Origin: Eledone cirrhosa
Taxonomy: Eukaryota
DNA: 64,000 nt
Direction: 5' to 3'
Assembly: GCA_964016885.1 (NCBI GenBank)
Contig: OZ024741.1
Coordinates: 60,264,001-60,328,000, forward strand
Both the position numbers and the translations under genes were made by a program. This document shows, one piece after another, positions 11,152 through 62,395 of the stretch. Below the pieces are notes generated by a model. It worked only from the letters and a program-made list of their open reading frames with translations, did no database searches and was not told the DNA's origin. Position 1 is the first letter of the stretch. Each line of letters begins with the position of its first letter.

Positions 11152-11205
11152 TGTTTTAAATAAACATGTTGTAACGGTCTATTCTCCGATTTTTTACTTT
11201 CCCAC

Positions 11206-11238
<33 letters not shown>

Positions 11239-12003: not shown

Positions 12004-12083
12004 CTCCCTGATGACGCAATGAAATTCTCAACAGTTCATTACGTAACTGTCTTTATCCCATTGCAGAACCTAATTAGTTGGAG
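12004..12083 (+). ncRNA. Hammerhead of unit 1 (A15.1->C)
   Basis: CUCC-CUGAUGA-CGCAAUG..CAUUGCA-GAAC-CUAAUUAG-UU|GGAG. Confidence 0.65.
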
Positions 12084-12555: not shown

Positions 12556-12635
12556 CTCCCTGATGACGCAATGAAATTCTCAACAGTCCATTACGTAACT
12601 GTCTTTATCCCATTGCAGAAACTAATTAGTTGGAG
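12556..12635 (+). ncRNA. Hammerhead of unit 2 (intact core)
   Basis: CUCC-CUGAUGA-CGCAAUG..CAUUGCA-GAAA-CUAAUUAG-UU|GGAG; stem III ACUAAUUAGU is a perfect palindrome. Confidence 0.8.
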
Positions 12636-12702
12636 TGAAAATTTAAGTAAGTAAGTTAATTTTTTTTAATTTTTTAAAAAAATTTTCTTATTTTACGTCT
12701 TT

Positions 12703-12839
<137 letters not shown>

Positions 12840-23799: not shown

Positions 23800-24588
23800 T
23801 TATGATAGTACAAAAACCATGAATAAACATAAAAGCCGTGATTGGTAGAAGTAAACTTTTAACGAACGTTCCAGTATGGAGAGAAATTGTAAAATCTTCA
23901 AAGTAAGCCGACAATTAAACTGTAAAACTAGAAATTTTTTTTATAGCATGAGATGCATAGAGGAGCAATATAGTAATAAGACCACAACTTATATAGGGCA
24001 AACAGCTTGCAGTGAGGGGAAATGGGGAGGATGTATTGAAGAAAAGTCGAAGACGAGAAAAACTCACCAGTGCTCTAACAACATGCTATGGCGGACTCAC
24101 TAGAAAACATAGAAATAGAAAGTATATTTACAGACCAAACAAATGCAATGCTCAGACAGATTAAGGATATTCAAATGAATGTAGGCCGAAACTCAATAGA
24201 ATGCAAGAATGGAACAACATCTCACACAAAATCTCGGAGGGACCACAAGACATAAATACACACTTTATGCACAGACACACAAATCATACAGCACACAGAA
24301 ATTCGTATACGTGGCAGCACACAGATTCAAATACACTCACATACACACACACATACATACACACACACACAAACGTACACGACGACTAGACGCACACCTT
24401 AAAACAACAAAATGAGATACATAGAAAAGATAAGAACAAATAGAAGACACAGAAGGACATGTTTAATCATTGAAAAATTCAAGCATTTGTGACGAAAGAG
24501 CTTTCACAAATAACAATGAAACAACTAACCGTAAATTCCACTAGTGTGGGTGGTTATTGGCAGCATGACTATCCCAAATATAACTATA
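23800..24588 (+). mobile_element. Decayed Naiad-like PLE 3' fragment (GIY-YIG, degenerate hammerhead ~24467-24508, tail)
   Basis: LNCKTRNFFYSMRC..YIGQTA; homologous to the 49133-50659 element, including the tail ttattggcagcatgac..cccaaatataac. Confidence 0.8.
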
Positions 24589-24754: not shown

Positions 24755-24816
<62 letters not shown>

Positions 24817-24819
<3 letters not shown>

Positions 24820-25030
24820 ATAATAATAAATTTGAAGACAAAATCCAAAGAGGGCTCGAAAAGGATAAATATATATCAAATATATAAGAACCGTAGAGCA
24901 AATATTTATTAAAATAACAGATTAAAGTTTAAGCAAAGAATCGCTGCTTTCACCCTTAACGGGATCTTCTGAAACTTCAGAAGATCCCGTTAAGGGCGAT
25001 TCTTTGCTTAATCTTTAATCTGTTATTTTA

Positions 25031-25038
<8 letters not shown>
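24817..25038. mobile_element. Fold-back hammerhead insertion (family E) in (TA)n
   Basis: Arms ~24902-24973 / 24976-25038; left arm has an ~85-bp extra tail that recurs at 31886 and 32222. Confidence 0.8.
24926..24976 (-). ncRNA. Hammerhead fold with U4->A core (family E)
   Basis: AGUUU-CAGAAGA-UCCC GUUAA GGGU-GAAA-GCA GCGAUUCUU UGC-UU|AAACU. Confidence 0.7.
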
Positions 25039-25763: not shown

Positions 25764-26310
25764 TGTAATAAACAACATAAGATAATTATTTCATTTACCA
25801 GTGGTTTCTTGAAAGCAGATATATTTGTTTTCAGTCGTCAGAATAAATAAAACATGGTGTTTTTATTAAATATGGATTTGAAAACAAAATATAAAAAATA
25901 TAAAAGTGAAGCTGAGGAAACAGCGGGCGAAAAAGAAGAAAAAGAATACATACATATATATAAAAACAATAAATATATAAATATGCGCGTGGTTGAGTGT
26001 GTGTATGTTTATATATGTATTGTTTTTATGTATGTATTCTTATGTATTTATTCTTTTTCTCCTTCTTCGCCCCTTGTTTCCTCAGCCTCATTTTCATATT
26101 TCTTATATTTTCTTTTCAAATCCGTATTTAATAAAAACATTTTTATTAAATGTTTTATTCATTATGACGACTGAAAAATAGATATATCTGCTTTCAAGAA
26201 ACCACTGGTAAATGAAATAATTATGTTATGTTGTTTATTACATAACTAATAAGCTTGGTAGCCTACATAGAGCACTCTCTTTTCCTGTACATTTCCGACG
26301 GAATTACTTC
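25759..26310. mobile_element. ~230-bp-arm fold-back with a hammerhead in each arm (25790-25847 -, 26158-26216 +)
   Basis: UUUAUU-CUGACGA-CUGAAA..UUUCAA-GAAA-CCACUGG-UA|AAUGAA; the plus copy has C3->A; arms 25759-~25985 / ~26005-26248. Confidence 0.8.
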
Positions 26311-30452: not shown

Positions 30453-31056
30453 GCATATATACACTCACACACACACACACATATATATACATATATATAT
30501 ATATATATGTCTGTCTGTGTGTGCCTGTGTGTGTGTGTGTGTTTGCGTATGTTATATATATATGTGTGTGTATGTATGTAAACATGTCGTTGGCTTAAGA
30601 AGCAATATGAAACTTATATATTTGGAATGTAGTCGTTCCAACGGCAATTACTATAATAATAGCTGAATACGGTAAATAATACCTGAGAAAATTGTGTAAA
30701 ATATTCATGGAGATGGAAAATGTGACGGAGACATTTTACACAATTTTCCCGTCTATTATTTATAGTGATCGATTAATATTATAGCTATTTGCATTGGAGA
30801 AAATACATTTTAAATTTCAATTTTTCCTAATTCTTCTTAAGTCAAAAGGTTGTTTACACTTCTAGCTACAGGCTTAAAATCGTCAAAAAGATGGAATTCG
30901 TGGTCAGCAGCTCTTTTTTCCTACTTGCTCGGCATTCGAGACATACTAGATTCTATTCCTTTAAGGTACCACTGTCCATTGTTTCGGTCTTCTGTGATAC
31001 TTTACCAAATGTTTTGAAAATTATTTCTAATCGACTATTATTATGATGATTTTAAA

Positions 31057-31272
31057 GGTCGGTGGATTAGCATTATTGGTAGATCGTTAGACCTCATCCG
31101 TTGCGTGATATAGTTACGTCCCTTTATCTCCTAAGTTCGAATCCCACCGAAGTTATCTTTCCATTTCATCCTTACGGGGTCAATAAAATAAAGTACCAGT
31201 AACACACTGAGGTTGATTTAATCCCCTTTTCCTCTCACCAAAATTATTGGCCTTATGCCTAAATCAGAAATC
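31057..31272 (+). mobile_element. tRNA-derived SINE, diverged
   Basis: aagttcgaatccc B box plus tttcatccttacggggtc..aaagtaccag. Confidence 0.8.
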
Positions 31273-31885
31273 AGTACTACGATGATATGATTTAGGCCGA
31301 CTACATTAATTAATATATATGGCCTAGTGCTAGGATCTAGAAACTACGACCATAAAATGGTGGGTAAGGTTCCTGGACCGGAAAGAACGTTGTATTCTTC
31401 ATCAAAGTTATTTATTTCACCTTGTTCCTTTGGTCCTTTTCCCAATGCTCATCCTATATTTATTTTATGTTTCCCCATTCTTTCTGTCATTATCATATTG
31501 TAAAGTTATTTTGAAAATTTGAACCAATAAAATATTTATCTTGATATATTTTTAATGGCTGATTTCGGTGTTTAGAATGTAACTTATCAGTTAGAAACAT
31601 ATTGAAGTAAATTTAAAATATAATGAATATATTATTCCTAATTATGCCTAATATCGTGAAAATATATTCATGAATACAACTGATAAAGTGTTTTATTTTT
31701 ATATTAATTTTAATAACAGATCGAAACTTTCTTGGAAGTCCTTACGTCTTCGTATATATTCAAAATAACCTCACATACACACTGTTATTTACATTACTCT
31801 ATACCTAAAACATCTTACCTAAAACATTTTATAAATTTTATCTTCTATTTTCTTTGATATATACATATATATATATATGTATATA

Positions 31886-32028
31886 GTAATAATAAAAAAT
31901 GTGAAAACTAAAATCCAAAGAGGGCTCGATAAGGATAAATATATATCAAATATATAAGAACCGTAGGGCAAATATTTATTTGCTCTCCGAAGCAAATCTG
32001 TTATTTTAATAAAAGAGTAAATCTGTTA

Positions 32029-32076
<48 letters not shown>

Positions 32077-32365
32077 TTCATCTGTTAATCGATAGATAAT
32101 CGGTATTGGCCACTATTGTCACTGTTGGTGACAGAAATTGGAAAAACACACTTGATTCAACCCAAGGCACTAATCTCCACTACAAGATATTACAGGGGTC
32201 GTAATTCCTTGTTTCTGAAATAAAAAATTTGAAGACTAAAATCCAAAGAGGGCTCGATAAGGATAAATATATATCAAATATATAAGAACCGTAGAGTAAA
32301 TATTTATTTGCTCTCCGAAGCAAATCAGTTATTTTAATAAAAGAGTAAATCTAAATCTGTTATTT

Positions 32366-32420
<55 letters not shown>

Positions 32421-32557
32421 TTCATCTGTTGATCGATAGATAATTGGTATTGGCCACTGGGTGGGTAACAGAAATTTGAAAAACACACTTGATTCAACCC
32501 AAGGAGTTAATCTACACTACAGGATATTACAGGGGTCGTAATTCCTTGTTTCTGAAA
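31886..32557. repeat. Tandem duplication (~330-bp unit x2) containing family E tail, a TA tract and adjoining sequence
   Basis: 31894-32220 matches 32221-32557. Confidence 0.85.
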
Positions 32558-34358
32558 GGGTGTCAAATTAGAAGAGAGCCCTTCTTACCCATCCTACGGG
32601 ATAAGCGTTTACGCAATCATTTAAAAACAAATTCATTTAAAACGTATAGAAACTTTTATTAGAACTTTATTTCAAGGTACTCGAAACATTTCCTGATTGG
32701 GGGAAAACATAATTATTCATTCATCGCTGTAACATATCTTGGGAAATGGAATGGTAAGATTGTAATTCTGTGTGAGAATGCGCTATTAAGTTAGACATGG
32801 CCTGGGCTAATACTGGCCGAAACTTATCAAAGTTATGAAAGTTATATATATACAAAGAGAGGGATTAAGAGTGGAGAGGGAGAGAGATAGAGAAAGAAAG
32901 AAAGAGAGGATTTGTGTGAGAAGTGGGATAGTTGTATTATTGCACTTATAAAAGCGGTGAATTTGCAGTATCGTTAGAGCAGCAGACAAAATGCTTTTAA
33001 GGTATTTAGTTACGGATCTTCACGTTTCTTAGTTCAAAACCAGAGTGTTCAACTTTACTCGCACTTCATAGATCAATGGAACTGCCTGTTCATGAAAATT
33101 ACGTGCAACTACATATACGAGTATCTTTAACTTAATTATTTGAGAAAATTTAGCATCGCACTGTGTGTCAACAGAGTCCACCTACCCAGTTTTACTCATA
33201 AGGCATAGGTGGACTATGGTAAAGGAGACTTTCCCAAAATGCCACGTTGAGGAACCGAACCTGCGATCTTATGATTGCGAAGCAAAGTTCTTAAATATTT
33301 GGTCCTGCTATGTCCATAATACTTTCCAATTTAGTCTGAAGATCAGCAATTCGATTATATCGACCCCAGTACTTAGTTCGTACTTTATTTATTGACACCG
33401 AAGGGTAAAGGGATCGAAACACTCATCGTCGGAACTGACGGAAATCCATTCCGTTCCATATTGTCTTTCAGCTGTTTTTTTCTTATTATCCATCATTCAT
33501 ATTTGAAAGCTACAATGGCTATACAATCTGATGAAGATTTACGTTATCACGATGACAGTGACAATATGAATACAGAAAGATATTCAAGAGATGACATATG
33601 ACGAAGTAAAGGATATGAACTTTGGATTTGAAAATCTTATGTACGTCTTCATAGAATTATATAATATAGAAACTGGATACCGATATTTATCGATTTTCTA
33701 TCGGAAACAAAATAAACGGTTCTATGTTGAAATATATGAAATACATGAAATCCATTGTTGGCCCCAATATGTACAGTATTTTTTAATCTTCTGTGAAATT
33801 CTGATTGAATTCGTAACTGTGTTTTTGCTGCGGGAGATTTTGTCGTTTTCTATCAATGTTGAAATGAATTTCTATAGTTTAAAGTTATGAATTTTCAGAG
33901 AAAGAAGCAATGAATGAATGTATTTGACGGGTAGACTAAATAATTCATAGGTTTCACCACCTCCCCCACAGAAACATAACAAACATTGCGAACAAGCAAA
34001 TAAGTCAAGAAAAAATAACAACGACGTTTTTATATTAATCTTCAAAAAAATACTGACATACATATTTCATCCCTATCGCGTGGCTGTGTGATGAGAGAAT
34101 TGGACTCGCAATCGTGAGGTTGTGAGTTCGATTCCTATATCAGGCGATGCGTTATGTCCTTGACCAAGACACTTTATTTCACGTTACTCCTACATGGAGT
34201 TACGACGGATAGATAGTATTAGCAATTTGAAAAGAGCAACGGAAACATTGTTTCGGTCCAATTTGAGGAAAGTCGATCGAATATCTATATATATATATGT
34301 GTGTGTGTAGGCGTATTTGTACAGTTGTTTTTTTCTTTTCCGTACAACATCATTTAAA

Positions 34359-34399
34359 CTGAGCTGATGATGCGAATAAGGTGAAACAATTGTCCTCGG
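34359..34399 (+). ncRNA. Minimal type I hammerhead
   Basis: CUGAG-CUGAUGA-UGC GAAUAA GGU-GAAA-CAAUUG-UC|CUCGG; weak stem II; 30 nt upstream of (TA)n. Confidence 0.7.
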
Positions 34400-34444
34400 A
34401 AATTGTGAACTAACTGTTGTAGAACTACTTATATATATATATAT

Positions 34445-35155: not shown

Positions 35156-35509
35156 ATATATACATATATATATATATATATAAATATACAAATATAATTT
35201 CAGCGAGATCGTATTTCGGCAGTTGCCGTAAACAAAGCGAAACGCAATCTTCGAGATATTCGGCAAGCACCTAAATGGACTAAAATAAGACCAGACCAAT
35301 TATATATATATATATAATATATATTGGTGAAATCTCGGTTATATATATATATATAGGACCCAGAAATATGTTGACTGTTTCTCTATGCCACTGCTAGAAC
35401 AAACGGACGACGGTGGTCATTAAAAAAATATATCGTGATGAAGCTGTTTGCTTGCAAATGAATCGAATATTGTTATTGTTATTGTTATTATAATTATTAT
35501 TATTATTGT

Positions 35510-35862
35510 GTTTTGCAGTATAGAGTTATGGCCCTTTACATTCTGAGTTCAAATCCGCCGAGGTTAACTTTGTCTTTCATCCTTACGGGTCGATAGATTA
35601 AAGCACCAGTAATACACAGGGGTAATTGGTGTCCTTGTGCCAAAAGTAGAAACATTATTATTATAACAAGAGGGCGGTGGATTGGCAGTATCGGTAGAGG
35701 GTCGGACGCCATGCTTTCCAGCATAGTTACGTCCCTTTACGATCTGAGTTCAAATCCCGCCGAGGTTGACTTTGCCTTTCATCCTTACGGGGTCGATAAA
35801 ATAAAGTACCAGTAATGAACTGGGTAATAACTGGCCTTGTGCCTAAAAGTAGAAACAATTAT
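35510..35862 (+). mobile_element. Two tandem SINE copies (partial 35510-35660, full 35672-35862)
   Basis: A and B boxes and body as at 4833-5014. Confidence 0.9.
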
Positions 35863-37305
35863 TATTATAATTAATCGGTATAAATCTCAGAAATACATTA
35901 AACCAGCTATGTGAGAGCGAGAAACCAAATTCTAATTTTGTTTTTAATTTTCGGTCAAACCAGCCGTAATATCGCTAGGTATGCAACCGATGTATACTTA
36001 GAATAACCTCTTGCCACAATGAATACATCAGAGGCGTAGCTGCTCCTCCTTTGCTCAAACTATAAAAAAATAAACTAAAATTGTGCATGGCTTGCGCGTA
36101 TTTGAAATTCCAAAATTAACCTGTAGATTAACCTAGCGGAACGATTTAATGAAGTGTCAGAATTAAAGGCTGCATATTTTTTCGAGCTTATTCAAAATAA
36201 TAAAAAAAGAAATTAATTAAAATTATTCTTTATTATCAATCGGGGTAATTGTATTTTGTGTTGCGTGTTTTGGCTAGTCTAGGCCTTCATTTCTTTCTTT
36301 GTATGGTTTTGTAAGGACAGACAATATATATTGCTGCATGTTTCAGATAATTTGTGGGCTAAAATTCTCTTTGTAACGTCTGAAGTACAAGTAGTCTTTC
36401 AGATAACTAGATTATAGATTAAATATTTAAAGCATTTTGTATATAAATAGTGGGTGGGCTTTAATTTTAATTCTATTTAATTGAGTAATTGTAACTGGTG
36501 GGATGTGATTTTGTCTACTTAAGCGTTGTTATCTTGGGTCGGATTATGTAAATAAAATTATGTAATATATTTATATAATATTTATATAATAAAACATAGA
36601 AAACTATGTTAAATTGAAACTGGAATCTTCGAATGTTAATATGAAATATTTCCTCTCCAGTCTGATACATATTCAATGTCAGACCAATTTGTATTCCTAA
36701 ATTGTTTGACTACATTAGTAATATCACATTTTTTATATTGATCGGATTGTTTTTGTGGTGGGAGAGAGTTTGAAAATAAGGTAGTGCAAGGCTCGTTAAC
36801 ATAAAAATTTCCAACCATTTTCTCATTAGTACACATAGACAGCTTTTAATTTTGCTCATGGAAATTATTATACGACAGATAATTGATTAATTAAATCTAA
36901 CAGATATTTCTGATCTTTTCGGTTTTGTTAACACCACCATTGCTCTTTAGTGAATATATTACAAGTTTATTATCGCCATTCAATCCTACGTTTCTATGTC
37001 CTTTTGTATCGAGGAAAGAAATTAAAAACAAAAACAGTGAAAAATATTTAATAGTCATAGACGTTTGACGTCCATAGTGATGACGTTTTTCGTGTGTGAG
37101 TCAACAAAGTTTTCTCTTACTATAAATGAATCAGTTTCCTTTTGTTCAAAATGCTAAAGCTTAGCGTAATGGCACATTCATTTCATTAAAACCGTTATTT
37201 ATTTATCCACGACTAATGTATATGGCCAGATTCACATTGTAATAATATTGTATCGCGTATATATATATATATAGCGAAGAAATACCGATGATGGTTGGAA
37301 GATCA

Positions 37306-42516: not shown

Positions 42517-42605
<89 letters not shown>

Positions 42606-43386
42606 GTGGTTAAATGAATGTAGTTGCTATTTCTCGAAAAAAATTGTATTTGTTTCTGCCCCTGCCCTCCCTCCACTCCGTCTTTCTATTTCTTCATTAT
42701 TTTCTCGTTTAATTTCCTGATGAAAGACTTGCCACCAGAAGGTTAAGCTTCTTTCCCTACAATATCAAGCGTAAAACTAATACATTTCTTCATCGATCTG
42801 TGTCGATTGCTTTGTTATTCCTGTTTACTTTTTGCATACACACATGTGTGTGTGTGTATTGGCAGAGATGTTGTATTGGCTATAGTTTTTCATTTTCTCA
42901 AGTTTAAACGTAAAAAGTGAATAAATATCTCTGATGTGTGTGTATATATATGTACACATATATATATATTCGTCAAGTCGGTCTCTAGTCCTACTGGTAA
43001 CATGTAACCCAGTACAACCTGTCTCATAGTCGAGTCGGTGGCGACTAATCCGGCAACCCTACCAAGCTTGCTTTGTGAGGAGGGTTATATTTGGGCACCC
43101 TGTGGAATAAATAAAATACAAGACCTGGCAAAGGTCGGAGGAACTCAGCAGAGTAAACGGCCATCCAAATAGTATTTTTCTTTATATACGGAGAGGTTAA
43201 ACTCCGAGGCATAAAAGATCTTTCTCTCCCTTCTAATGAAGCATTTCCCCCCAGCACATAAATATAGTAACTCCGGAGTAAACAAACCAATCTGCGTACT
43301 TCGTCGAGTGTCCCAATCTGCATACTGAGGTGTCGGTAAACAACCAACATATACTCAAAATTTATATACATAATTATATATATATA

Positions 43387-44230
43387 TATATCATAAATCA
43401 TGTCTTTAGAATCATCAGATATTAAAATATATACTATTTCTTCTTCTAATTAGCATAATTAACCATATACAAAGTCAATCCTAGCAAGTTATAAGAATAA
43501 ATTCTCTTATGGGGAAATCTTCGACAAATAATCGATCGTAGCCTCTTCGCGGCAGCCCCGTTCCATTATTTATCCAACATTTCGACAGCATGTAGAAACT
43601 GACTAAATATACCATCAATCATACACAATTAGTTGTAAAATTAAACTTAGAAGAAATGAGCACATACCGTAATTATATCTCTACCATGGTTTCTTCCTTA
43701 TTTAGGACATCCAAATAATAGGAATGTCCAGAGCTAGGTTTCATCAGGAGACAAACTCAAAATCAGACATCTAGTTTTTCAATCCGATCCCGCCAAAATT
43801 AGATTCAAAAATGGCTAGAAATCGCTATGTAGCTGTGTTCCAGCCAGAGAGAAAGAGTGTGATTGGTTGCTTACGGCGGGTAGGCTTGCTGCTAGAAAGC
43901 GCAGCCAAATATCGCCAAATTTAATCTCAACCTATTGGGAGATTATTAAATATAGAGGTTATCATATACATAAAGTTAAAGATATATATATGTTGCAACT
44001 GTTCACTTTTAAGCTCTATGAAGAATTAATAAATTAAAATCAAAAAATCAGAGCATTATATCATAAATCATGTCTTTAGAATCATCAGATATTAAAATAT
44101 ATACTATTTCTTCTTCTAATTAGCATAATTAACCATATACAAAGTCAATCCTAGCAAGTTATAAGAATAAATTCTCTTATGGGGAAATCTCCGACAAATA
44201 ATCGATCGTAGCCTCTTCGCGGCAGCCCCG

Positions 44231-44231
<1 letters not shown>
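43387..44231 (-). mobile_element. Non-coding terminally redundant retrozyme-like element (670-bp unit, 175-bp direct repeats) in (TA)n
   Basis: 43387-43561 and 44057-44231 differ at one base by eye; internal hammerhead; TA on both sides. Confidence 0.85.
43676..43753 (-). ncRNA. Type I hammerhead with extended stem II
   Basis: UGUCUC-CUGAUGA-AACCU..GGACAUUC/GGAUGUCC..AGGAA-GAAA-CCAUGG-UA|GAGAUA; palindromic ACCAUGGU. Confidence 0.75.
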
Positions 44232-44277
<46 letters not shown>

Positions 44278-44279
<2 letters not shown>

Positions 44280-45370
44280 ACTCTTTTTCTGAAGTCTGCT
44301 GCGCTTTGGGCCTCACAATAAGCTTGGAAAATACTGTTGTGATGTATCAGCCACCACCGGGAAAAGAGTACACTACACCAAGTCTGTACGTGTACGGAAA
44401 GAGGCTAAAAGTTACTAACAAGTTTGTTTATCTTGGTAGTACACTTGATGAATCAAGAAAGCCAGAGATGCTTTTGGACGGTTGCATAAACGTTTATGGC
44501 CCAGACGAGGTATCACCATTGAAACCAAGGTAAAAGTGTATCTGACTTGTGTCGTCTCCTCTTTGCTTTATGCTTGTGAAACGTGGGTCACATACAAAAA
44601 GCACCTCAAGGAACTGGAGAGATTTCACCAACAATCTCTTCGTAAGTTACTTGGGGTGTGATGGGAAATGTTCGTCAGTGATTTGGAAGTTCTCGAACGG
44701 AACAGCTGCGTGACTATAGAGAGCATGATCTTTCGGCATTGGTTGAAGTGGTGCGGTCACGTTGTCCGGATGTCTGATGATCGTATTCCAAAGCAACTTC
44801 TCTACGGAGAACAGTGTGAATGAAGGCGACCACCACACAAACCAAAAATGAGGTTCCGGGACTGTGTCAGGGGCACCTTGGCTTGTGCTGGAATTTCATC
44901 TGATGAATGGGAGAAGATTGGTGGGGAGCGCGAAAAGTGGAGACGTTTGATCAAGTCAGCTTAGTAAACACTTTCAAAGTCGTCGGAGAGAACACCGTAC
45001 ACTGAAAAGGAAGGTCAGGAAAAGAGACTGTTTTGAACTACCTGCTGTTGAGCAACATCTGGTTTGCCAGCCCTGTGGTCGAGCCTGCCTGATTAAAGCT
45101 GATTTGATTAGACATGAACAAAGTCATATCAGTAGACCCCATTTAGATTATGATCTGAAAAGGTTTAAGGAATGTGCAAGCATGGGAGGTCTTAAAAGAC
45201 ACATGAGAACTCACAAATAGAACCAAACAGTGGAAAGTCCCAGCGAAGCCTACAGTTGCCATGTGTGCCAGTTGGTGCACGTCCTTGGCTGGTTTAAAGA
45301 ACCACATTGGTGCCTCACATTTTTTAACATTTTATCGAGCGATGGCAATGCTCGAACACGAGTTTGCAGC
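44278..45370 (+). mobile_element. RTE LINE 3' portion with three C2H2 finger-like repeats
   Basis: LGLTISLENTVVMYQP..KFVYLGSTL; LLYACETW; WCGHVVRMSDDRIPKQLLYGE; CQPCGRACLIKADLIRHEQSH, KECASMGGLKRHMRTH, CHVC..LAGLKNH. Confidence 0.9.
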
Positions 45371-46260: not shown

Positions 46261-46599
46261 ATGATTAGCTCGTGTTTGGCGTTTACATGTTAAAGGTTCC
46301 TCGTTTCTGGAGGCATAAAATGTGGAAAAAGTTACCCCAATATTTTCAAATTACACATAATGATCGATTATTATTATCGTCATTTCCGTTGGGATGACTA
46401 CGTTTTATCTTTAGCGTGTTTCTATTATATGCACTGGCGTATTCACTAAACGATCACTACTAATGGAATGTATAGTAAATATGTATTAAATACTCAAATA
46501 TCTAACTTTACTCCATATACCAACACACAATTGAATTATGACTTCTTGTTTGTTCTTATTTTAATCGTTAGGTGTTTGCTGCAGATGTTTATCAAATAA

Positions 46600-46712
46600 C
46601 TGTTTCTACTTTAGGCACAAGGCCAGCAATTACCCAGTGCATTACTGGTACTTTATTTTATCGACCCCGTAAGGATGAAAGGCAAAGTCAACCTCGGCGG
46701 GATTTGAACTCA
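46600..46712 (-). mobile_element. 5'-truncated SINE; atgtttatcaaataac repeated on both sides (possible TSD)
   Basis: Same family as 4833-5014; direct repeat at 46585-46600 and 46715-46730. Confidence 0.85.
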
Positions 46713-48855
46713 TGATGTTTATCAAATAACAAAGATTTATTTGAATTGAATTTAATAATCAACATTCATAAATATTTAATACATTATTAATATTTACGTT
46801 TAGTATTATGTGGAAAGCTACACTAAAGGGAAATCAGATAATTTACGACATACAGACCATATGGTTGTTAGTAAACAACATTTAGATATTGCCATACAGG
46901 TATTTATTAAAACACTGCAATTTATATATTCGCTAATACTATATCTAAAGTTGGCTTGTTGTTCAGAATATTAAATGATATTATGGTAAACAAGGAATCG
47001 TTTTACGGGGCGATCACTATTTTAACTTTAAAATAGTTGAAAGTAAATCGGGTATATAACTCCTTATGTGGGGAAAATAATCGACCTAATCGATGTTGTG
47101 ATGCTCATATTATATAGCTTCTGGGTAAACAAGTGTATAGATCAGGTATTCTGTCCATTTTCCCCCTCATAAATATATATCCCTGATTTAATTTCAATTA
47201 TTTAACCTTTAGAATTAGGTGTTGACTTCAAACTGCACCGATGTCAACTTAACTTTTTATAATTTCTGGGTCGATAGACAGAGAGAAAATTCTGGGTCCA
47301 TAGTGTAATTGTTAACGAGTCAAACTGGTTGCTTCGTGGTGTGTTCTGTGTTCAAATCCCCGCTCTTTCTGGTAATGGTGAGCGGCAGGTAGTATCATGA
47401 ATAGAAACATTCATGCGGACATTGTTTCCTTGGTTCAATCTGAAGACCGACTTCCTTTATATTTCAGTAGTACATGTGGTCAGATTAAAAATATATTAAG
47501 GTAGAAATAGAAAGAAGTGCTTAATTGAGCTTGTTATGGTCATTCTGTATCATTTTGAGGTAAAAATGCGATTATATTTCTAATCATAAACTTAAATATC
47601 TATTCTTTCTAAAGTCGATATCTGAAATTATAATTGGTTTAGAACTGCACTCTACAAATGAAACGACTTTATTTGGGTATTTTACTGACGTTCACATTTT
47701 CAAGATATTTGTTGCCTAAGCTGTGTAAAAGGCTTGTTAAGTAGATGATAATATCGAGTTATTTTGCAGGATGAATCCGATGTTTTGTTTTGTTTAACCT
47801 ATGGAAACGCCAGTTACTTCAATTCCCATAATAATGGAAATTATCAAAATAGTCTGTGAACTCTGGAGATGAACTTGCAGATGATCGGATTTCGGTGTTT
47901 ACCTGTCAAACTTGTGATCGTTCATATTCTATAAAACTGTGGATCATTCTTCCTTATCAAATTTATATTTCAACCTGTAAGGAATAAATCCATCTTCCAA
48001 TTCACAGACCTCACTTCCATCGAAATAATTCATGTAGACATAGAACAGTTCTACTGGAAAAATTATGAGTGAGTAACAATTGTCTTACATTTATAATGAT
48101 TCAATGAATATTTTCGTTAATAGTGAGGGCCAGTGCCGGATTTAACAGTGCTTATGTGTGTTTAAGCATATGGCCCGGTTGGCCTTTGGGGCACAATTTG
48201 CAGCCAAAAACATTTTTTACGATCAATTTTTCAAACGTTTGGGGCCTCATAACTTAACTAGAAGAGAGCCTCATTTGTCCTAAATCCGGAACTGGTGAGG
48301 CATCTCCTGAATAATCTTTATATTGAAAGCATATGGGTTTTAATTGAAATGTGAAATTCGACAATCGCAACCAACATGGTCCTAAGTATGATCTTTACAA
48401 TGTTATTCAAATATTTTAATAAAGATAGGTTAGGTTTGGTTGTATTCTACTGGTTTCTATATTTTCTTTGTTTCAAACAAACCCACATAGGTACATACAT
48501 ATATAGCTACGCACATATATACATTCGAACACACACACGCACACACACAGACATACACACACACACACACACAAACACACACATATATATATATATATTA
48601 ATATGTTGAACATTACAAACTTGAACATTGAACATTGCAAACTTGACTGTCACCACAGAATATAAACCTGAAGAATGCGAAAGCATGAAAGTACTTGTTC
48701 AATTAACACTTAACATTTAATATTCTACCATACTATTTCATTATAATACCATTATAAATTTTAAAGGATTGTAAATAAAACGAGTAAATCAGACAAAGTT
48801 GGAATTCCTCTTATTAATATAATCTTCTATACACAATCAATCATACACACCCGTG

Positions 48856-49132: not shown

Positions 49133-50651
49133 TCGTTTCTAAATTTGTTTAGTAAGATTCTTTATCTGAAAACGTGTGTTGAAACCAATATTGTTATACT
49201 TTGGGACAGTCATGTTGCCAATAAGAAACACACGCACCATAGCTTTCACTCCAATTTATTATAAATTAAATTATAAATTAAAAAAATTTATAAATTTCCG
49301 GTTGGTTGGTTGGTCCCACAACCGGATGGTTGTTCATATATTGTCAAAATTCTTTCGTCACACATTCTGGGACCTCATCAGTGACCTGGGATTCTTTTCT
49401 TTGTTTTGTGCCTCTCCTTTGTTCTGTCCTACGCCATCTTGTTTTTGTGTGTGTTGTGTGCCTAGTTTGCGCATGTGTTACATCCGGGTGTCTGTGTGTG
49501 TTTTTATTTGTTTATGTATTTGTTTATTTACATGTTACTAGTTGATTGTTTGTTCTATGTGTGTGTTTTCATTTTGTCCTTAATTGTAAGTTGCGATGTT
49601 GCTATTCCATTCATGTTTTCTATTTAATTTTGGTTGGTGTTCATTTATGTTTATTGCTTCTGTGATTTGTCTAAACATTGCGTCTTTTCTGTGTGTAGAT
49701 TTTATTTTTATTTCTATGTTCTCTAATTTGCCCTTATGTTCTATTTTAGCATGTTGGTGGAGTACTGATGAGTCTTTTCTATCTTGAAGGTTCATTTAAT
49801 CCTTCTCTATGCTACGAGCTGTCTCACCTATGTACATTATATTCTTATCTTTACATTGTCTCTCAATACATTTTATGCTATATACTATGTTTCTAGTTTT
49901 GCAGTTAATATGGGGGCTTAGTTTACAGATTATGTATGTCTTATCTCTACAGTGAGGTCTTTGAAAATTACTAATAAGTGTTTTTATGGAGGTACCTGGT
50001 CTTTCCACTATCTTAATATTTAGTTTAAGTTTATCTAGGGCCCTTCTAAATTTGTAAGGTAGTTCACCTCTAGGGTTTGTATTGATGAACATTACACTCT
50101 GGTATTTATTGTATCATACCATGAGTTTATTCTATTAACCTTATTCCTAGTTCTTTCTATTCTATTCCAAAAGTTGCTCCTATATAAGTGGCAGGTCCCA
50201 TTTGTATCATTGTTTACCATTTTTTCCCATTTGGTTCCTCTATATACTCTGATTTTATCTATCTGATTGTAACCAGAGAACTGCATACGGTGGATGAAGT
50301 GTTGTATGTGTCTCTCTAGTCCTTTGGGGTTGCACATGACGTTCCTCACCACCCGTACTAAATCCGCAATCAGTATGTTGATTTTGGTGTGATCCGAAAC
50401 AGCTGAGTTTCGGTGGATCAGATATTTGGAAGTCATGGTTTGGCATAATTGGAATGGAGGTCACTGATGAGGTCACAGAATGTGTGACGAAATAACTTTG
50501 ACAATATATGAACAACCATCCGGTTGTGGAACCAGCCAGCCAACCGGAACTTTATAAATTTTTTTATATTTATAATTTAATTTATAATAAATTGGAGTGA
50601 AAGCAACTGGTGCGTGTGTTTGTTATTGGCAACATGACCCTCCCAAAGTAT

Positions 50652-50659
<8 letters not shown>
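49133..50659 (-). mobile_element. 5'-truncated Naiad-like PLE (RT thumb plus GIY-YIG) with 200-bp inverted pseudo-LTRs, in (TA)n
   Basis: IHRNSAVSDHTKINIL..MQFSGY; CKTRNIVYSIKC..YIGETARS; HAKIEH..DAMFRQITEAINI..LNRKHEWN. IR 49188-49387 / 50458-50659. Hammerheads GUCA-CUGAUGA-G-GUCACA..UGUGAC-GAAA..UGAC at 49343-49385 (-) and 50460-50502 (+). Confidence 0.9.
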
Positions 50660-51852: not shown

Positions 51853-52980
51853 GCGTGTGTGTGTGTGCGCGTGTGTGCGTGTGTGCATATGCTTAGATAG
51901 ATTGATAGATAGAATTATATATTTATATAAACGTAGAAGCATACATGGGCCCCTTATTCAACATGTTTATGTATAGAATACATATATACAAATCTCGCAA
52001 CAAATGTTTTAATATATTATTATATCACATCTATCTCAGTATCTGTTTAAGTGCATTATATACGTGTTTCAAAATGATCATACCTTAGTAATGTGTTTAC
52101 TATTATATACCTAAATATTGAAGTTTCCAAATTTATATAAAGTTTGTTAGTGCTACTCCCAATTCCTGCTAAACACCTACTAAACTCTCAGTGGTGTAAT
52201 ATATGTAAATGAGCCGTAATGAAAATGATCATTTACAAAATAAATGAAACGTTATAATGTTTAACATCTCATACTACTGTAAGAAGAAAAAAATAGCGAA
52301 AGAGAAAAATGTAAGGGAAAGGGAAGGCGGTGAACTATACACCCTAGTGAAGGCCGTATATCCCAGCTGTACTTCACGGATGAAATGATGAACAGATGTC
52401 TGCGGAGTACAGCCAGTGACACCTACTGCATCAGTCCCTCCACCTTTATTTTCGTCGAACGGGAAAGGGGTTATTTCGTCTGGCCGATTATCATCACTAC
52501 GTTCTGCAATGGCTAGCTCAAGTTGAGACAGAAAGCTAACAATGTCTAGGTGTCTTCTGATGACGTCCTTCTAGGCGGCGTGTCAAAAGTACCGACATGC
52601 AGCACTTTGGTGACAAGATAGCGGGTGCAGTCCAAACACGTCGGCCATGGCTTCCCAACGGCATTATGCGGCTCCCATACACAGGGATCGAGAGGCTCTA
52701 AGTATTATTGATGAATGACAATAATCATGAAATACGTACGTCTTGTTCTTATAGAAATACATAGCCTTGATATGATCACAACGAAAATTATTCTTCATGG
52801 TTTCATACACACACCCTCTCTCTACCTCACCGTGTTCCTTGGATTAGAGAATATAATATTAAGCATTGTTTATATTTTAAATCCAACGTTTACTACTTTC
52901 ATGACACTTATCATGATATAAGGTTAGTTGCTGTTAAGTGTACCGGCAACAATAGAAATATTTCATAAAGGAATGTGCAC

Positions 52981-53073
<93 letters not shown>

Positions 53074-53080
53074 TCACTAC

Positions 53081-53136
<56 letters not shown>

Positions 53137-53140
<4 letters not shown>

Positions 53141-53353
53141 TCACTACGTGGCAATGATCGAAGGGAGCGATCGGGGCCACTCGTATTGCGACGATAGAGG
53201 TGAAAGTCTTGGATTGTCGCAAGACGTACTGCAGCGACGGCGTATGGCATGAACGTTTTCCTCGATCAAGTGCGAAAGTCGAAGGTTCGAAGGCGATCAG
53301 ATACCGTCGTAGTTCCGACCGTAATCGATGCCGACTGGCGCTCCGCCGGCGTT
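53137..53353 (+). pseudogene. 18S rRNA gene fragment (~215 bp, central domain) in (TA)n
   Basis: Conserved SSU motifs cgtattgcg..agaggtgaaa.tcttgga..gcaagacg, gatcaag..cgaaagt..aggttcgaaggcgatcagataccgtcgtagtt..accgtaa.cgatgcc. Confidence 0.9.
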
Positions 53354-53368
53354 ATATATGTATATATA

Positions 53369-53580
53369 TGGATCAGGGATTGCCACTCCAGTTACTGTAG
53401 GTTTACTAAAGTGAACACTCGCTGCGTAGTTTCCAGTAGGTATATTTGTGTTGTAGTATGAAGCAGAGTGTAACAGATAGTAATGAAAAGGACTAGGTGT
53501 TAGATCTTCATTACATTTATTGAGGTGTGACGCGCGTTTCGCGATTGATCAGCTCAAGGCTCGATCTGTATCGGTCGGGC
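53369..53580 (-). mobile_element. Family F pseudo-LTR fragment
   Basis: cttcattacatttattg..gtgacgcgcgtttcgc..tgatcagctcaagg.tcgatctgtatcg, as at 28130-28197. Confidence 0.8.
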
Positions 53581-55704: not shown

Positions 55705-58700
55705 CAAAAGTTATGAAACGAAAGGAACTGTCTGGTTACTAAAAACAAAGTTTAGGATGTTGGTTAGGAGGGAATAGGAGAAAGGAATTTCCATCGTCAG
55801 CTGTTATTGTATCCCGAACCGGAGTTTACATACATTTAAAGGAGCCGTGTGAAAAATATAAAAAATAAAATTAAACAATCGAAGTCCTCAATAGACGTGG
55901 GTCGCAAACATCCTCGAAAAAATGTGAAACCCACTTCCTCAGGAGCACAAAGAGCGGTGCTCCCTTCCTCTCCCCCTTCTCCTCCTCTCTCACCTACAGG
56001 CTGATATAGAGAGAAGGCCCATTCACTAGGGCCATTCTCGCCACTTTCACCCACCATTCTGATCCTTCTTCTAAAATGGTATTTGAAAATAAGGACCAGT
56101 TGTTGGTTGGATAGAAAGGTGTCTGACCCCAACCTTTTCAACCTCGTCCACCATACAACCTCTTTAGCCATAGCTATCACACAGAGGAAAACCGCCTCTC
56201 CTTCGTTTTTGAAGGGGGGAGGCGGTTTGATCGTGACAATGTACTCGGTGGTCAACCGGATTGGGCCCACCCGAGACAGTAGTCATTCCACATAGCCCCA
56301 CAGGTCAGCAACGCCCGGGCAGTGTACGAATATGTGCGCGTCGGTTTCCTCGTCACGCACGCATCTCGGACAGATCTTTTTTGAGAGGTACCTACCCGGG
56401 CGCCCGTGTCTATTGAGCTTGTCCCGAACGGGTAGAGCTCCTCAATAGCACTGCCAAGCCAGGGACTTTTGGAAGTTGTCCACCGGTCCCCGTCAAACGT
56501 CCTACCGAACAGACTGGCTAGTTCGTCTTCCTCTATGCCCAGAGCTTCTCCGAGAACGTCGTCGCACTTGCTGAGTACCAACCCTCTATAGAATGTCGAG
56601 GTGGAGTCTCCACTGATTGCCGGATCCGCTTTCCAGAGGGCCGTGAGCGCCTGAGCACATTCAATGTGCCAGTCGCCCACTTTTCTCGGTCTTTCCTTGA
56701 CCCAGGATTGCAGCTCGGTGAGCGTGACTAGTCTCGGAAAGGCTCACCTCACACGAGAGGCCCACACCGGTTGACCGGTGAGGAATACCTGGAGGTGCCG
56801 TAGCATAAATGCGTGTTTACGCATTGTCAGCCATGGCATCCTCAGCCCTCCGTTAGAAGCGTGTTGACAGCAGATGGATCTTCTCACCAAAGGGGCCCGC
56901 TTCTTCCAAAGGAATTGGAAGAGCGCGGGCTCCATTTTGGCGAGCGTTTTCGCTGGGCAAGGCACGACGGTCAAACGGTAGTAGATGACGGACGCTATAT
57001 AAGTGTTCGCCACCTCCGCTCGACCTTTCAGGGATAGTTTTCACTCGGCCCACTTCTGGTCGAGTGCAAACACCCAGCCCGTTACCTCGTCCCAGTTTTT
57101 CTCCACCTAGAGGTCTGGTCCGAACCAGACCCCGAGCAGCTTCACCGGTCCCTTCGTCCAGCGTCCGACGACGCCGTAGGAGGGAATCGGTTTGCCTCTC
57201 CACGTTCCTAGTTGCAAACCGACGGACTTGTCCCGGTTCAGCTTAGCTCCTGTAAACCTTTCGTATTCCTCCAGTAAGGTGCCGATGTGCCCGATTTCCG
57301 AGGCGCACGACACCATTACTGTCACGTCATCGGCGTAGGCCGACGCCGGTTTTTGCAATCCCGGTTCAAAGGGGATGCCCTCTTACAGCTCCAACTTCCG
57401 CTGTAGTGGCTCGAGAGCCAGTACATACAGAAGGGAGGAGAGAGGGTATCCCTGTCGGATGGATCGCGTGATTTCGAACGGCTCCGAGAGGTAGCCGTTC
57501 ACTTTGACCCCCGAACAGATGTTGCTGCTGTGCATTGCAGCAATTAAGCCCCTGAAAACGGGTCCGAAGCCTGCTGCCGCGAGCACCGCATCCAGGTACC
57601 GATGCTCGACCCTGTCTAACGCCTTAGATTGATCCAAGTTGATCATGGCCCCACCAAAACCGGATTCATTCCCTACCCTCTCAACGATGTATCGCATGAG
57701 GTGGAGGTTGTCGTGTATGGACCTGGACGGGATTGGGCATTTCTGCGCTTCTCCCACCAGGTTCCCGACGACAAGCGCCAACCTCTTCGCTAACACCTTG
57801 GCCAAAATCTTTAACTCTGTATTTTGTAGAGTTATGGGCCTGAAGTTATCTATGTCATTCCTCACTAGCGTGACTACGCCCTTGGTCATACAACTGGGAA
57901 TTCTATTGCCAGTTGCAGTTGACCGCCTCGAGGAGATCAGAGAACATCCGTGCACATCCGCTCAGGTTCAAGGATCACACGTCCATCCATGTCCTTCAAA
58001 GACCAAATCGTGGACTTGTTTCCACTTTTTGCCTCTGCCACTCGGGCTCAGCTAACAGCTTTGGCTCCCTCGTTATGCAGAGCACGTATTTAACTCCTGA
58101 CAACGCAGCCCTCGTGCTTCGCGTCAAAGAACTGGTCTAGGGCCGTTCTTGACGCCAGCACACCGGCCACGTTGCCACTCCTAGTGGCCTCTTCTATTCT
58201 ATCTATCAATTCCCTTTCATTTCTATTCCTATCTAATGCTAATTCCTGACTAAAACCTATAGATTCTATTCTATTTGCTCTCTTGAGAGATCCCCACCAC
58301 CTGCTTTTGTCAACCGCTGCTTAACTAAAGTGCTAATCCGTTTACTGTAAGTTTTGTTTGTCGGTAAGGACAAGTTTAGCTTCCAGTAACCGGGTCCCTG
58401 TCTATGGATTCTATCAAGGTTGACTACGCAGGTCACTAACTTGTGATCCGAATAGTCAACGATGAACATTCGTGGACAGCTTAATATGTCCCTATCCTTA
58501 TTTTAAACTAGGAACCTATCTAGATACGACCTAGATGTTCCATGCGATATAGTCGATATCTATCGGCCGGGTCAAATCGACCGATTAACCGTTTGTGGCT
58601 GTTACACCCCCCTCTATCGGGACATGCCCCTACATAGTCCCAACGTGCATCCAGGATACCATTCCAGTCCCCCGCTAAAAGCAAGGAGCGAGACGTTCCC

Positions 58701-60830
58701 AGAAAAGTCTCTAGACGTTGAAAGAAGTCCGGCCCCGGTGTCCCAGATGGGGCATACGCTGCCACCAGCCTGAAGGCTCCACTTTCACTACTGCCGACGT
58801 CTAGAACCACCAGTCGGCGCTCCGGTTCCAGGTGTACCTTCTGTGTTGCGAGGTCCAGGTGTTTTCGCAGCAGAACGACAACCCCATCCCCACCCCTCGG
58901 CTGACAGAGAGATGTATAGATCTCAATGTCGTCGAAGATGGGGGCCAGTTGCTGCTCGCTGCTGATCCTGGACTCGCAAATAGCTATTACATCTATTCTG
59001 TGCGACCTGAGGTCATTGAAGAATTTGCACTGCTTCCAGGACATCCCCAGGCCGTGCACATTTAAACATCCAACTATTATAACAGCCATATGGGTGGTGA
59101 AGTGTTAAAGTGGAGAAAAAGAAAAGACACCTAACTCTCCGTCTCCTGGGGACCAGGCTGCACAATTTCCATGGGGGTGTTGGATGGGTTGTTTGGTGGG
59201 GTGGTGGTTTGGAGTGTGGTGGGACATCAGTGTGTGGTGGGGTCGAGGTGTTTGGTAGGGGTATCTGGGGTGGTGGTGGGGAAACATTTCAAAAGGACGT
59301 GGTTTGAAGGTCTAGTACAGGGGTTCCCCACGTCCTTGGGAAAGTTTTGTTTGAGCATTGCGTAGGTGTTTCTTGGGACCCTAATCATTTTTAAATGCGG
59401 TTTATTCGCCGCGTTGGTGAACATTTTCCCTTTGGTTTCCAGCGAAGGGTCATTGTTTATTGTTTGTACAAGTGTTTTGTTGTTTGTGTTGATGTATGTA
59501 TAATGTTTTTTGTTGTGTTGTGTTTATTTTTGTTTGTTCTGTTTGTTCTGTTTGTGCTGGTGGTTGTGTGTTTGTTGCATTTTTGTTAATGTGGTGCCTT
59601 CTTTTCTTTCTTTTTACTGGTTGAAAGGGCTCTCCCTCGTCGTCACTGGGTGACGTTGATAAGGGGTCCTCGTCCGTGTTGTTGGGGAGGGGTATATTTG
59701 GGGTTTTGTTGTGGTTGCGGGTGCTTTCGTATTTGTTTTATGTGGGGAAGGGTTAGGTGGGAAAATGTCTTGTGTTGTTATTTGTTCGTGTTGTTGTGGT
59801 TGTTGTTGTTGTTGTTGTTGTTGTTGTGGTGGTGGTGGTGGTGGCGGTGGTGGTGGTGGTGGTGGTGGTGTTGTTGTGTGTGGGGTGGGCAGAAGCGGTT
59901 TTTTTTGAGGGGGGAGGCATTTAAACGAGGACAGGAAGCCCTCAGGTGACCACTGCTTGAACAGTGGTAGCATGATGGCCGGCTGCCCTCAACATAAATG
60001 TTTATGAAAGCGAGTCCAGCCAGGGACACATGCTGCGGTATTCTTGCTATCCGTTCTGGTCTCATTTGGACTAGAACTTCAAGGCTATTGCCGCCGAATA
60101 CGCCCCTGGTGGATTCGCCTATGGAAAGGATTGTGTCCTCATCTTGTAAGAATCCCGTTAGCACCCATCAAATGCTCGCATTTGGCCTGATGCCCGAGAT
60201 TCTTATCTTCTGTGTTCTTTTCGCCAAATATGTAGGGAAAAGGGTGTATAACTTGGATACAATTTGCGACACAGAATATTTCTGTGCCATCAATTGATCT
60301 GTCATTAAAACAATTGAGCCGGTTTCCTAGTTGCGTTAGAAATTGTCCTGAAGGTTGTGGTCCTCAGGACTGTGTCTCTTCTAATTTCTTGGGGGGGAAG
60401 TAATTGTAAATTCCCCACCTTCCCCGAAAGTTACATAATTTCTTGCTTCTTTTAGCAATTCCTTGGCATTTGAGATATCCAGTGGCTTGTATGTTTGCGT
60501 TTCTCGGACCGCCTGTGCGAAAGAGACGCCAGTTGTGGGTCCGTTTTCTTTGGTGTTGTTGTTGTGATCATTGTTGTTGTTGTTCTTCGTCTTGACTTCA
60601 TTTTTTTTCTTTGTTGGTGTTGTCATTATTGCTGTTGTTGGTTGTGTTGTTATTGTCATTGATGTTGTTGTTTGCGTAATTGTAACTTTTGGGGTTTGCA
60701 CCCATTTCCACAATTTTTTCCGTTAATTCAGTGTTCAAGGTGTCTTTTGCGGGAGTGAGGAGGGAAGGCTTAGAGCGTTGTGCTGCTACCTTCTCTCTAT
60801 CACTTTCGGGGGGGGGGGGAATATGTCGTA
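55705..60830 (-). mobile_element. Near full-length decayed Tx1/L1-clade LINE (ORF1 with CCHC knuckle; ORF2 APE plus RT)
   Basis: ORF1 RPSCYHCSSSGHLRASCP. ORF2 from ATG 59089: GCLNVHGL, AGDWN, SDHKLV, GPGYWKLN, NFRPITL..KILAKVLAKRL, LDQSKALDRVEH, RQGYPLS, YADD. Multiple stops and frameshifts; ends approximate. Confidence 0.92.
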
Positions 60831-62055: not shown

Positions 62056-62162
62056 AAAACTATTTTTTATGTTATATTATTTACTGGATTTTATTGTAAA
62101 GTCTCTGTCTATATGTCAGACCTTGTTGCTAATAAAGAAATTATCATTATTATTATTATCTA

Positions 62163-62352
62163 GGGCGGTGAATTGGCAGTATCGGTAGAGGGTCGGACGC
62201 CATGCTTTAACGCATAGAGTTACGGCCCTTGCCATTCTGTGTTCAAATCCCGCCGAGGTTAACTTTGCCTTTCATCCTTACGAGGTCGATAAAATAAAGT
62301 ACCAGTAATGTAATGGGTATTTGCTGGCCTTGTGCCAATAGTAGAAACAATT
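62163..62352 (+). mobile_element. tRNA-derived SINE
   Basis: Full head and body as at 35672. Confidence 0.9.
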
Positions 62353-62395
62353 ATTATTATCTTCAGTATCTTTATATTTAATCATATTAAAGGTA

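Follow-up and report, generated by a model that had tools for sequence, protein, structure and literature searches.

The DNA analysed here is a 64,000-nt stretch of Eledone cirrhosa contig OZ024741.1 (hereafter the window), and all positions refer to it. At 43387..44231 it holds a non-coding insertion that is bounded by TA microsatellites and contains more than one copy of a 670-nt unit (845/670 = 1.261 units). The features of the insertion are as follows.

43387..44231, minus strand (RNA sense): whole insertion, 845 nt or 1.26 units; the strand is assigned from the hammerhead orientation and from strand-specific folding
43387..44056, minus strand: full non-coding unit, 670 nt, 33% GC
44057..44231, minus strand: upstream partial copy, truncated at its 5' end (pseudo-LTR) and made up of the 3'-most 175 nt of the unit
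43387..43561, minus strand: downstream repeat, the last 175 nt (3' end) of the full unit
43676..43753, minus strand: predicted type I hammerhead motif, from a motif scan and shuffles
43417..43680, minus strand: predicted rod-like hairpin, ~265 nt from just past the cleavage site, apex near 43547
43387..43416, minus strand: weakly paired 3' tail ending in a 5-nt TA run common to the target; putative priming site
43812..44054, minus strand: 5' structured domain of hairpins and a multibranch, with words that we take to be CCAAT-like (43938, 43866) and GC-box-like (43880), a weak promoter lead only
43373..43391, no strand: left TA microsatellite target, with a 5-nt overlap with the element 3' end
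44231..44278, no strand: right flank TA tract, then (TG)17; TSD unreadable

Read in the RNA sense (minus strand), the insert opens with 175 nt that repeat the 3' end of the unit and continues with the whole 670-nt unit. The two repeats lie 670 bp apart and are identical at 174 of 175 positions; the sole mismatch is T43521/C44191 on the plus strand, which is A in the downstream and G in the upstream repeat in the RNA sense. Measured from stop to stop, frames reach at most 45 aa on the minus and 72 aa on the plus strand, and those that begin with ATG reach at most 44 aa. These results agree with a preliminary description of this DNA, which had reported near-identical 175-bp direct repeats at this spacing, no ORF, and TA tracts on both sides. 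The right tract continues into (TG)17. Any TSD is hidden by the TA target. Pol III A/B boxes and a tRNA origin were looked for in the element and neither was found.

A local duplication of 175 bp at the DNA level in an older element, or an assembly artefact of the same extent, would account for copies that are 99.4% identical in a microsatellite-rich region. However, TA tracts adjoin the two outer ends of the repeats exactly but neither of the inner ends. What is duplicated is the RNA 3' end, set upstream, which is the pattern of Penelope-like elements (PLEs), and the copies differ at one base; we regard this explanation as very improbable. The size of the insert and its two near-identical terminal direct repeats also recall a TRIM, or a plant-type LTR retrozyme with true 175-bp LTRs. 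Against this, TG..CA ends are absent in either orientation, and inspection of both orientations, done by eye rather than with a tRNA library, found no TGG-starting PBS after either repeat and no clear PPT. The hammerhead described below is of type I and lies outside the repeats, which hold only a half-core. With the termini, PBS and PPT all failing, the doubt that the preliminary description had cast on a TRIM/LTR element is justified, and we consider such an origin scarcely credible.

The flanks carry traces of other elements. The left flank at 43030-43100 (plus strand) looks like an RTE-type LINE 5' end and, from the order of its motifs, possibly holds a truncated twister-like ribozyme, with no Rfam match. 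In the right flank, 44279-45370 (plus strand) is an unrelated, broken LINE RT C-terminus with a zinc-finger-like tail and with APE+RT protein matches at 52-71% identity, which we take to be of the RTE clade. Twister-like motifs at RTE 5' ends are mentioned in PMC7761336.

The 64-kb window contains no further copy of the 670-nt family. A hammerhead-anchored pattern gave 0 matches in bacterial and archaeal genomes, phages gave no match, and a plasmid match to the element of 40 nt at 86% was judged to be chance. No published description of the element was found; repeat libraries lay outside the scope of that search, which is therefore weak evidence.

The preliminary description had also placed a minus-strand hammerhead at 43676-43753, outside the repeats. 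This call is made by motif scan and shuffles, and it was borne out: among 3000 dinucleotide-shuffled versions of the unit, 0 had the strict motif and 19 had a loose one. Rfam gave no match to a hammerhead or other ribozyme at the gathering score in the window, nor at E up to 5 in 42600-44600. Stem I has 6 bp (43753-43748 with 43681-43676), the cores are CUGAUGA at 43747-43741 and GAAA at 43693-43690, with a GUA triplet, stem II is extended (43740-43694) with A.A at its base instead of G-C, and stem III is an eight-base palindrome (43690-43683). Cleavage is predicted at 43682|43681, which lies outside both repeats and leaves 295 nt to the 3' end. One more CUGAUGA half-core, standing alone, starts at 43418 and is mostly inside the 3' tail (43387..43416); by inspection it has no GAAA partner or valid register and was rejected as a second hammerhead.

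Several properties of the motif bear on whether it would cleave. PLE hammerheads usually keep a conserved G10.1-C11.1 pair, as described in PMC4209133, and the A.A at 10.1/11.1 may, judged from the sequence, leave this ribozyme dead. The predicted probability of stem I is below 0.02 in every context tried, including 3'-truncated RNAs without the rod. The base of the rod is predicted to pair with the 3' strand of stem I and so to compete with it, but since stem I stays below 0.02 without the rod, the rod is not its sole competitor. Stem III is predicted to be far more stable as a self-duplex (-11.2 kcal/mol) than as a hairpin (+2.9 kcal/mol), and a stem III of this dimer-dependent type is known from PMC4209133 and, in the axolotl, from PMC7229834.

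The upstream copy (175 nt) is shorter than the distance from the cleavage site to the 3' end (295 nt) and so contains no ribozyme; it stops 14 nt beyond the rod apex, before the hammerhead is reached. The hammerhead in the middle of the element, to which the preliminary description drew attention, thus follows from truncation alone and needs no special cause. The locus holds one hammerhead, not two or more tandem units with a hammerhead each, and could not release a unit-length circle by itself; a multimer may lie elsewhere in the genome.

Folding of the RNA strand gave a result that is new here and was missed in the first reading, a predicted strand-specific rod. On the minus strand the stretch between the cleavage site and the 3' end (295 nt) folds at -82.2 kcal/mol (z -5.69, reached by 0 of 200 shuffles), whereas the same region on the plus strand has z +0.56. 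The fold has 104 pairs, of which 17 are G.U, and most rod helices have a probability above 0.95. When the 670-nt unit was folded as a circle, the predicted z was -5.83 for the RNA strand versus -0.37 for the other strand (40 shuffles), and the unit outside the rod region is also structured (z -4.42 versus -2.43). In the background, z -5 was reached in 1 of 82 folds (41 windows, both strands, 8 shuffles each). The 295-nt windows at 56701 and 57601 folded unusually well on both strands. The 3' UTRs of two coding PLEs showed no rod (z -1.2 and -1.3).

In a strand-neutral alignment of the rod, G.U outnumbers A.C by 21:4 (p 0.0009 against 50:50, or p ~0.05 by a hand estimate that takes account of the G+U-rich composition). 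A decayed DNA palindrome or MITE is disfavoured as the sole cause of the rod, as one strand only folds and G.U exceeds A.C. A-to-I editing was considered as the source of the G.U pairs by way of the ADAR neighbour preference, which concerns a 5' G. Such a G stands before 5 of the 17 guanines in G.U pairs and before 18 of the 65 adenines that are paired, which is no depletion, and editing was rejected. The mismatch between the repeats turns an A-U pair of the rod into G.U, and 27% of random changes would retain a pair. We read the predicted strand-specific rod, in this single copy, as suggesting selection on the RNA of one strand. The whole unit is predicted to be branched and not one rod, with a paired fraction of 0.65 versus 0.62 in shuffles. 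No circle-specific structure was found, as no confident helix crosses the unit junction; the circular fold scored -173.3 versus -178.7 for the linear fold, a difference that is partly the loop-closure penalty of the model.

The setting of the insert was examined across the window. A single scan gave six hammerhead motifs, where 40 shuffles had a mean of 0.225. In addition to the motif of the insert these are:

54619-54577, minus strand: type I hammerhead motif, with a perfect six-pair stem I and a palindromic stem III
34358-34400, plus strand: type I hammerhead motif, from the motif scan
29144-29078, minus strand: type I hammerhead motif, from the motif scan
25847-25790, minus strand: type I hammerhead motif, with an inverted copy near 26165-26215 (plus strand)
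13876-13819, minus strand: type I hammerhead motif, from the motif scan

Each of the six is followed on its 3' side by a TA tract at 66-356 nt, and for the five motifs outside the insert the tract lies within 200 nt (66-159 nt from the core in each case), compared with 26% of background positions that have a TA tract within 200 nt. The 295-nt distance from hammerhead to end in the insert is the longest in the window. A further motif at 60373-60310 passed the looser scan only, lies 4663 nt from a TA tract and is not counted among the six. Two coding remnants were recognised in the same surroundings:

49134-50659, minus strand: PLE remnant with an RT thumb, a C-terminal YIGET endonuclease, a 3' UTR that holds a hammerhead core, and a terminal TA tract
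9869-11205, plus strand: Hydra-like PLE 3' remnant with a GIY-YIG-like ORF (9869-10850) and a CxCX5C linker

The first is a canonical Penelope-like element. Its RT and C-terminal endonuclease part (49601-50442) has four RT-like protein matches, the best of them at 58% identity to a protein that is named as an Octopus vulgaris RT-domain protein, and reading 49134-50460 as Naiad was ruled out by the C-terminal position of the endonuclease. There is a ~200-nt inverted copy of this remnant, its two 3' ends differ by a tail of ~55 nt, and a related piece lies at 23778-24001. The 3' UTR of the second remnant has a hammerhead variant near 11115-11150 with a palindromic stem III, followed by the terminal TA tract. 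Its GIY-YIG-like domain had an atlas score of 0.96 to a cluster in which 12% of the members carry GIY-YIG, and a homolog search with this piece gave no match; the CxCX5C linker marks the TA-targeting Hydra clade according to PMC8557442. Pfam did not recognise the PLE fragments, with a weak RT match only, for P0001.

The occurrence of hammerhead motifs before TA tracts, together with the PLE remnants, indicates that the order hammerhead, short 3' region, TA is the ordinary PLE 3' end in this DNA. The 845-nt insert is one such PLE-type 3' end carrying a full non-coding unit. Within the 64-kb window no sequence similarity, including 3' similarity, was found between the insert and the coding PLEs. 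The combination of a hammerhead with a long predicted rod could also suggest an endogenised viroid-like or HDV-like circular RNA. No ribozyme was found on the opposite strand, however, and the absence of an ORF, the branched unit and the frequency of hammerheads before TA tracts among the PLE remnants of the window speak against it as well, making this origin extremely unlikely.

Other repeats occur nearby. Another non-coding insertion of PLE type, at 11228-12707 and likewise in a TA tract, consists of two tandem ~553-nt units that are 96% identical, with an inverted partial copy, minimal hammerhead-like cores near 12009 and 12560 and template jumps visible at 11520-11620. It has two 3' ends ~131 nt apart in unit coordinates, with TA overlaps of 5 and 2 nt, and its part at 12147-12707 is structured on the sense strand (z -5.0). 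With two cores in tandem it is a better candidate for a circle than the 845-nt insert. At 31884-32557 there is a ~330-nt tandem, the unit of which includes a TA tract and flank and in which no hammerhead was found; a related piece at 24816-25035 is followed by a fold-back inverted junction. The window further contains a eukaryotic SSU rRNA fragment at 52917-53403 (plus strand), interrupted and flanked by microsatellites and likely a pseudogene; a GC-rich broken LINE at 56000-60200 (minus strand) with Pfam matches to RT (57383-57961) and endonuclease (58520-59104); and a dispersed ~200-nt repeat family at 4818-5015, 31036-31218, 35509-35875, 46594-46718 and 62142-62360 (75-96% identity).

The 3' end of the insert bears on how it was primed. 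The preliminary description held that this end falls at an internal TATA matching the target, and that TA microhomology primed the synthesis. The 3' end and the internal read-through point do have in common an alternating TA run of 5 nt, but the chance of a TA overlap of at least 5 nt is 3.8% to 8.2% depending on the definition, so that the match is suggestive only. Five 3' junctions in the window could be compared with a read-through copy; the 31.9-kb tandem, which lacks a hammerhead, was excluded. The five share 5 (this element), 5, 2, 4 and 2 nt with the TA target, so that three of them have 4-5 nt. For two of the four other junctions to reach at least 4 nt, p is ~0.005-0.02 under a null of 0.02-0.065, and 0.07 under a liberal null of 0.12. 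The unit has eight TA runs of at least 5 nt: five are predicted to be paired (unpaired probability at most 0.10), one has 0.39 and two are mostly open (43954-43950 and 43391-43387; 0.87 and 0.59). The 3' end that was used is the second most unpaired of the eight (0.59) and lies 30 nt past the rod. Given the overlaps and the predicted accessibility, priming by TA microhomology at an accessible site is probable and modestly supported. A caveat concerns the internal run, which could itself be left over from a previous target.

We consider it highly probable that the insert is a PLE-dependent, retrozyme-type element. It has the partial tandem, the type I hammerhead upstream of the 3' end, the (TA)n target and the non-coding content of a PLE-derived insertion, as well as the type I hammerhead, the short palindromic stem III, the non-coding unit below 50% GC and the (predicted) self-paired monomer of a retrozyme. 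It is likely to be a young insertion, in partial tandem, of a non-autonomous PLE or non-LTR retrozyme. Its mobility, tandem master, helper, ribozyme activity and RNA form we infer from this one locus.

A mechanism that would account for the layout is PLE-dependent insertion copied from a linear tandem RNA over 1.26 units, a proposal which, taken as a whole, we hold to be evenly poised between right and wrong. A tandem master elsewhere in the genome would be transcribed in the minus-strand sense, and the RNA is predicted to fold into the rod and a loosely paired AU-rich tail, in keeping with the strand asymmetry found above. A TA-targeting PLE endonuclease/RT supplied in trans would nick (TA)n; coding PLE remnants do lie in TA tracts in the window. 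The freed TA end would anneal to an accessible AUAUA just 3' of the rod and prime 295 nt past the cleavage site, a step for which the TA overlap is observed and the priming is presumed. The RT would then copy through a hammerhead that is predicted to stay uncleaved, its stem III needing a second copy and its stem I being sequestered. Synthesis would stop 175 nt into the next unit, giving a pseudo-LTR without ribozyme, which is the layout seen.

A parallel is the Poseidon element of Anolis carolinensis (PAc), the only PLE that has been characterised biochemically. In vitro, the RT of PAc initiates inside its RNA, 85-92 nt downstream of where the hammerhead cuts; uncleaved RNA was the main substrate and hammerhead mutations were without effect in the experiments reported, and in the RNA-seq data described there no reads end at the cut site (PMC11167929). 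The layout that a circle would give also arises when a linear tandem RNA is copied, uncleaved, from an internal start. The length of 845 nt is below the 965 nt that a linear RNA could give if cleavage at an upstream hammerhead set its 5' end, and the single mismatch between the repeats fits two distinct template units slightly better than a circle read twice, which is a weak point. Against the linear PLE mechanism, the PAc start is without homology to the target, unlike the microhomology presumed here (PMC11167929), the coding PLE 3' UTRs have no rod, and no sequence links the insert to a coding PLE in the window. The single copy of the family, the 295-nt distance from hammerhead to end and the A.A at the base of stem II also count against it.

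The preliminary description had instead proposed 1.26 turns of a circular template. The retro-insertion of more than one unit stands (845/670), but nothing at the locus requires a circle. The idea itself is already published and is not new: a 2014 study proposed that PLE RNAs are cleaved by hammerheads and ligated into circles that template more-than-unit reverse transcription (PMC4209133), and in 2020 circles of ~170-400 nt were described for animal non-LTR retrozymes, with PLEs proposed as helpers (PMC7229834). Applied here, dimeric hammerheads would cut tandems, the 670-nt monomers would be ligated, and a TA-primed PLE RT would go 1.26 times round. This agrees with a non-coding unit that has strand-specific self-pairing, and with a dimer-type stem III that would cut multimers and spare the monomer circle, following the logic of PMC4209133. 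Circles have been shown for coral, mussel and axolotl retrozymes (PMC7229834), and one of the two 3' ends of the 553-nt element at 11228-12707 lies beyond the unit junction. However, the linear tandem gives the same layout within its length bound, and a single circle should give identical repeats, although the one difference is weak evidence and may have arisen after insertion. The demonstrated animal circles are of 170-400 nt, even if predicted units reach 972 bp (PMC7229834; 10.64898/2026.07.22.740005), the hammerhead, with A.A at 10.1/11.1, is predicted to be misfolded, the paired fraction barely differs from that of shuffles, and 1 of 9 predicted Xenopus dimers was cleaved in vitro according to the preprint 10.64898/2026.07.22.740005. 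We therefore regard a circular template as possible but rather unlikely. Positions 43681 and 43682, the ligation site in that model, are contiguous in the genome, so an RT-PCR product across them could also come from any uncleaved linear transcript. The fullest form of the circular reading is more doubtful still: that of a 670-nt cephalopod retrozyme that would live as a circular RNA, with dimeric hammerheads releasing the monomer, the 265-nt viroid-like rod locking the ribozyme, a single-stranded AUAUA exposed, and a TA-targeting Penelope RT priming there through base pairs with the nicked microsatellite and rolling past the ligation site.

Two priming events could also produce the layout. 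In this scheme the full unit would be inserted first, and a re-primed RT, or a second copy of 175 nt, would follow in residual TA at the 5' junction, so that the internal TA run would be target DNA rather than microhomology. The internal junction holds exactly a 5-nt TA run, PAc is able to nick AT-rich DNA of its own repeat (PMC11167929), the one mismatch fits two RNA molecules, and template jumps are seen at 11520-11620. But the second event must strike a 5-nt remnant amid many long TA tracts, and both copies end at the same base. We consider double priming improbable, and a single event on a linear tandem RNA is retained as the working model.

Two views of the more-than-unit insertions of PLEs and of the role of their hammerheads compete: the circles of the 2014 model, and the uncleaved RNA with internal initiation of the 2024 in vitro work. 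A short, young, non-coding element that is free of coding constraint is a handy test case for the PLE mechanism. The predicted rod and the repeated TA overlaps suggest a priming that is positioned by structure and assisted by microhomology, unlike that of PAc. If the circular reading were true, the insert would record rolling reverse transcription directly in the genome, with a priming rule distinct from the homology-free initiation of PAc. For annotation, the label of the insert should be PLE/retrozyme and not TRIM. As a single locus it adds one more member to a described class, the non-autonomous retrozyme-type PLEs in partial tandem, and its strand-specific rod, dimer-type ribozyme and TA overlaps would make it a useful probe of the PLE mechanism once the family is collected.

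Several known systems resemble the insert. A 2026 preprint by Li et al. (10.64898/2026.07.22.740005) interprets retrozymes as non-autonomous PLE derivatives with units of 51-972 bp, a range that includes 670. As described there and in PMC7229834, the animal non-LTR retrozymes have, like the insert, a non-coding unit below 50% GC, a type I hammerhead with a short palindromic stem III and self-paired RNA, have no LTR, PBS or PPT and occur alongside PLEs. The two-hammerhead rule of Li et al. makes the insert a 'monomer' rather than an 'active' retrozyme, as it has one hammerhead in its 1.26 units. Its unit exceeds the 170-400 nt of the animal circles, and its hammerhead is predicted to be blocked by self-pairing, which is unusual for animal retrozymes according to PMC7229834. 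In plant LTR retrozymes the unit is similar (~600-1000 nt) and the hammerhead is blocked by self-pairing, as is predicted for the insert. Each of their LTRs, however, contains a type III hammerhead, and these ribozymes, the PBS and the PPT, as given in PMC7761336 (see also PMC4918200), have no counterpart in the insert; their TSD is of 4 bp, where the TA target of the insert hides any TSD.

The layout itself is known from PLEs, in which a partially truncated copy ahead of a full-length copy forms a pseudo-LTR and TSDs are unreadable in microsatellite targets (PMC8557442). MRC1 and Chlamys-N of Chlamydomonas share with the insert the truncated upstream copy, the microsatellite target and the unreadable TSD, and MRC1, a non-autonomous PLE, was once filed as an LTR element owing to its pseudo-LTR layout. 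Most Chlamys elements, as presented in the same source (PMC8557442), are without hammerheads and use (CA)n or (C)n targets, unlike the insert. PAc has, like the insert, a 3' end downstream of an uncleaved hammerhead, a structured RNA and an AT-rich target, but it is autonomous and starts in an AC-rich stem-loop without homology to the target (PMC11167929), at the 85-92 nt given above; the corresponding features of the insert are 295 nt from the cut site and a 5-nt target overlap. The Hydra-clade and Neptune/Nematis-type PLEs combine TA-microsatellite targeting with hammerheads, and they encode RT and a GIY-YIG endonuclease whereas the insert is non-coding (PMC8557442). The remnants in the window carry the motifs of these PLEs, and they are candidate helper types for the insert.
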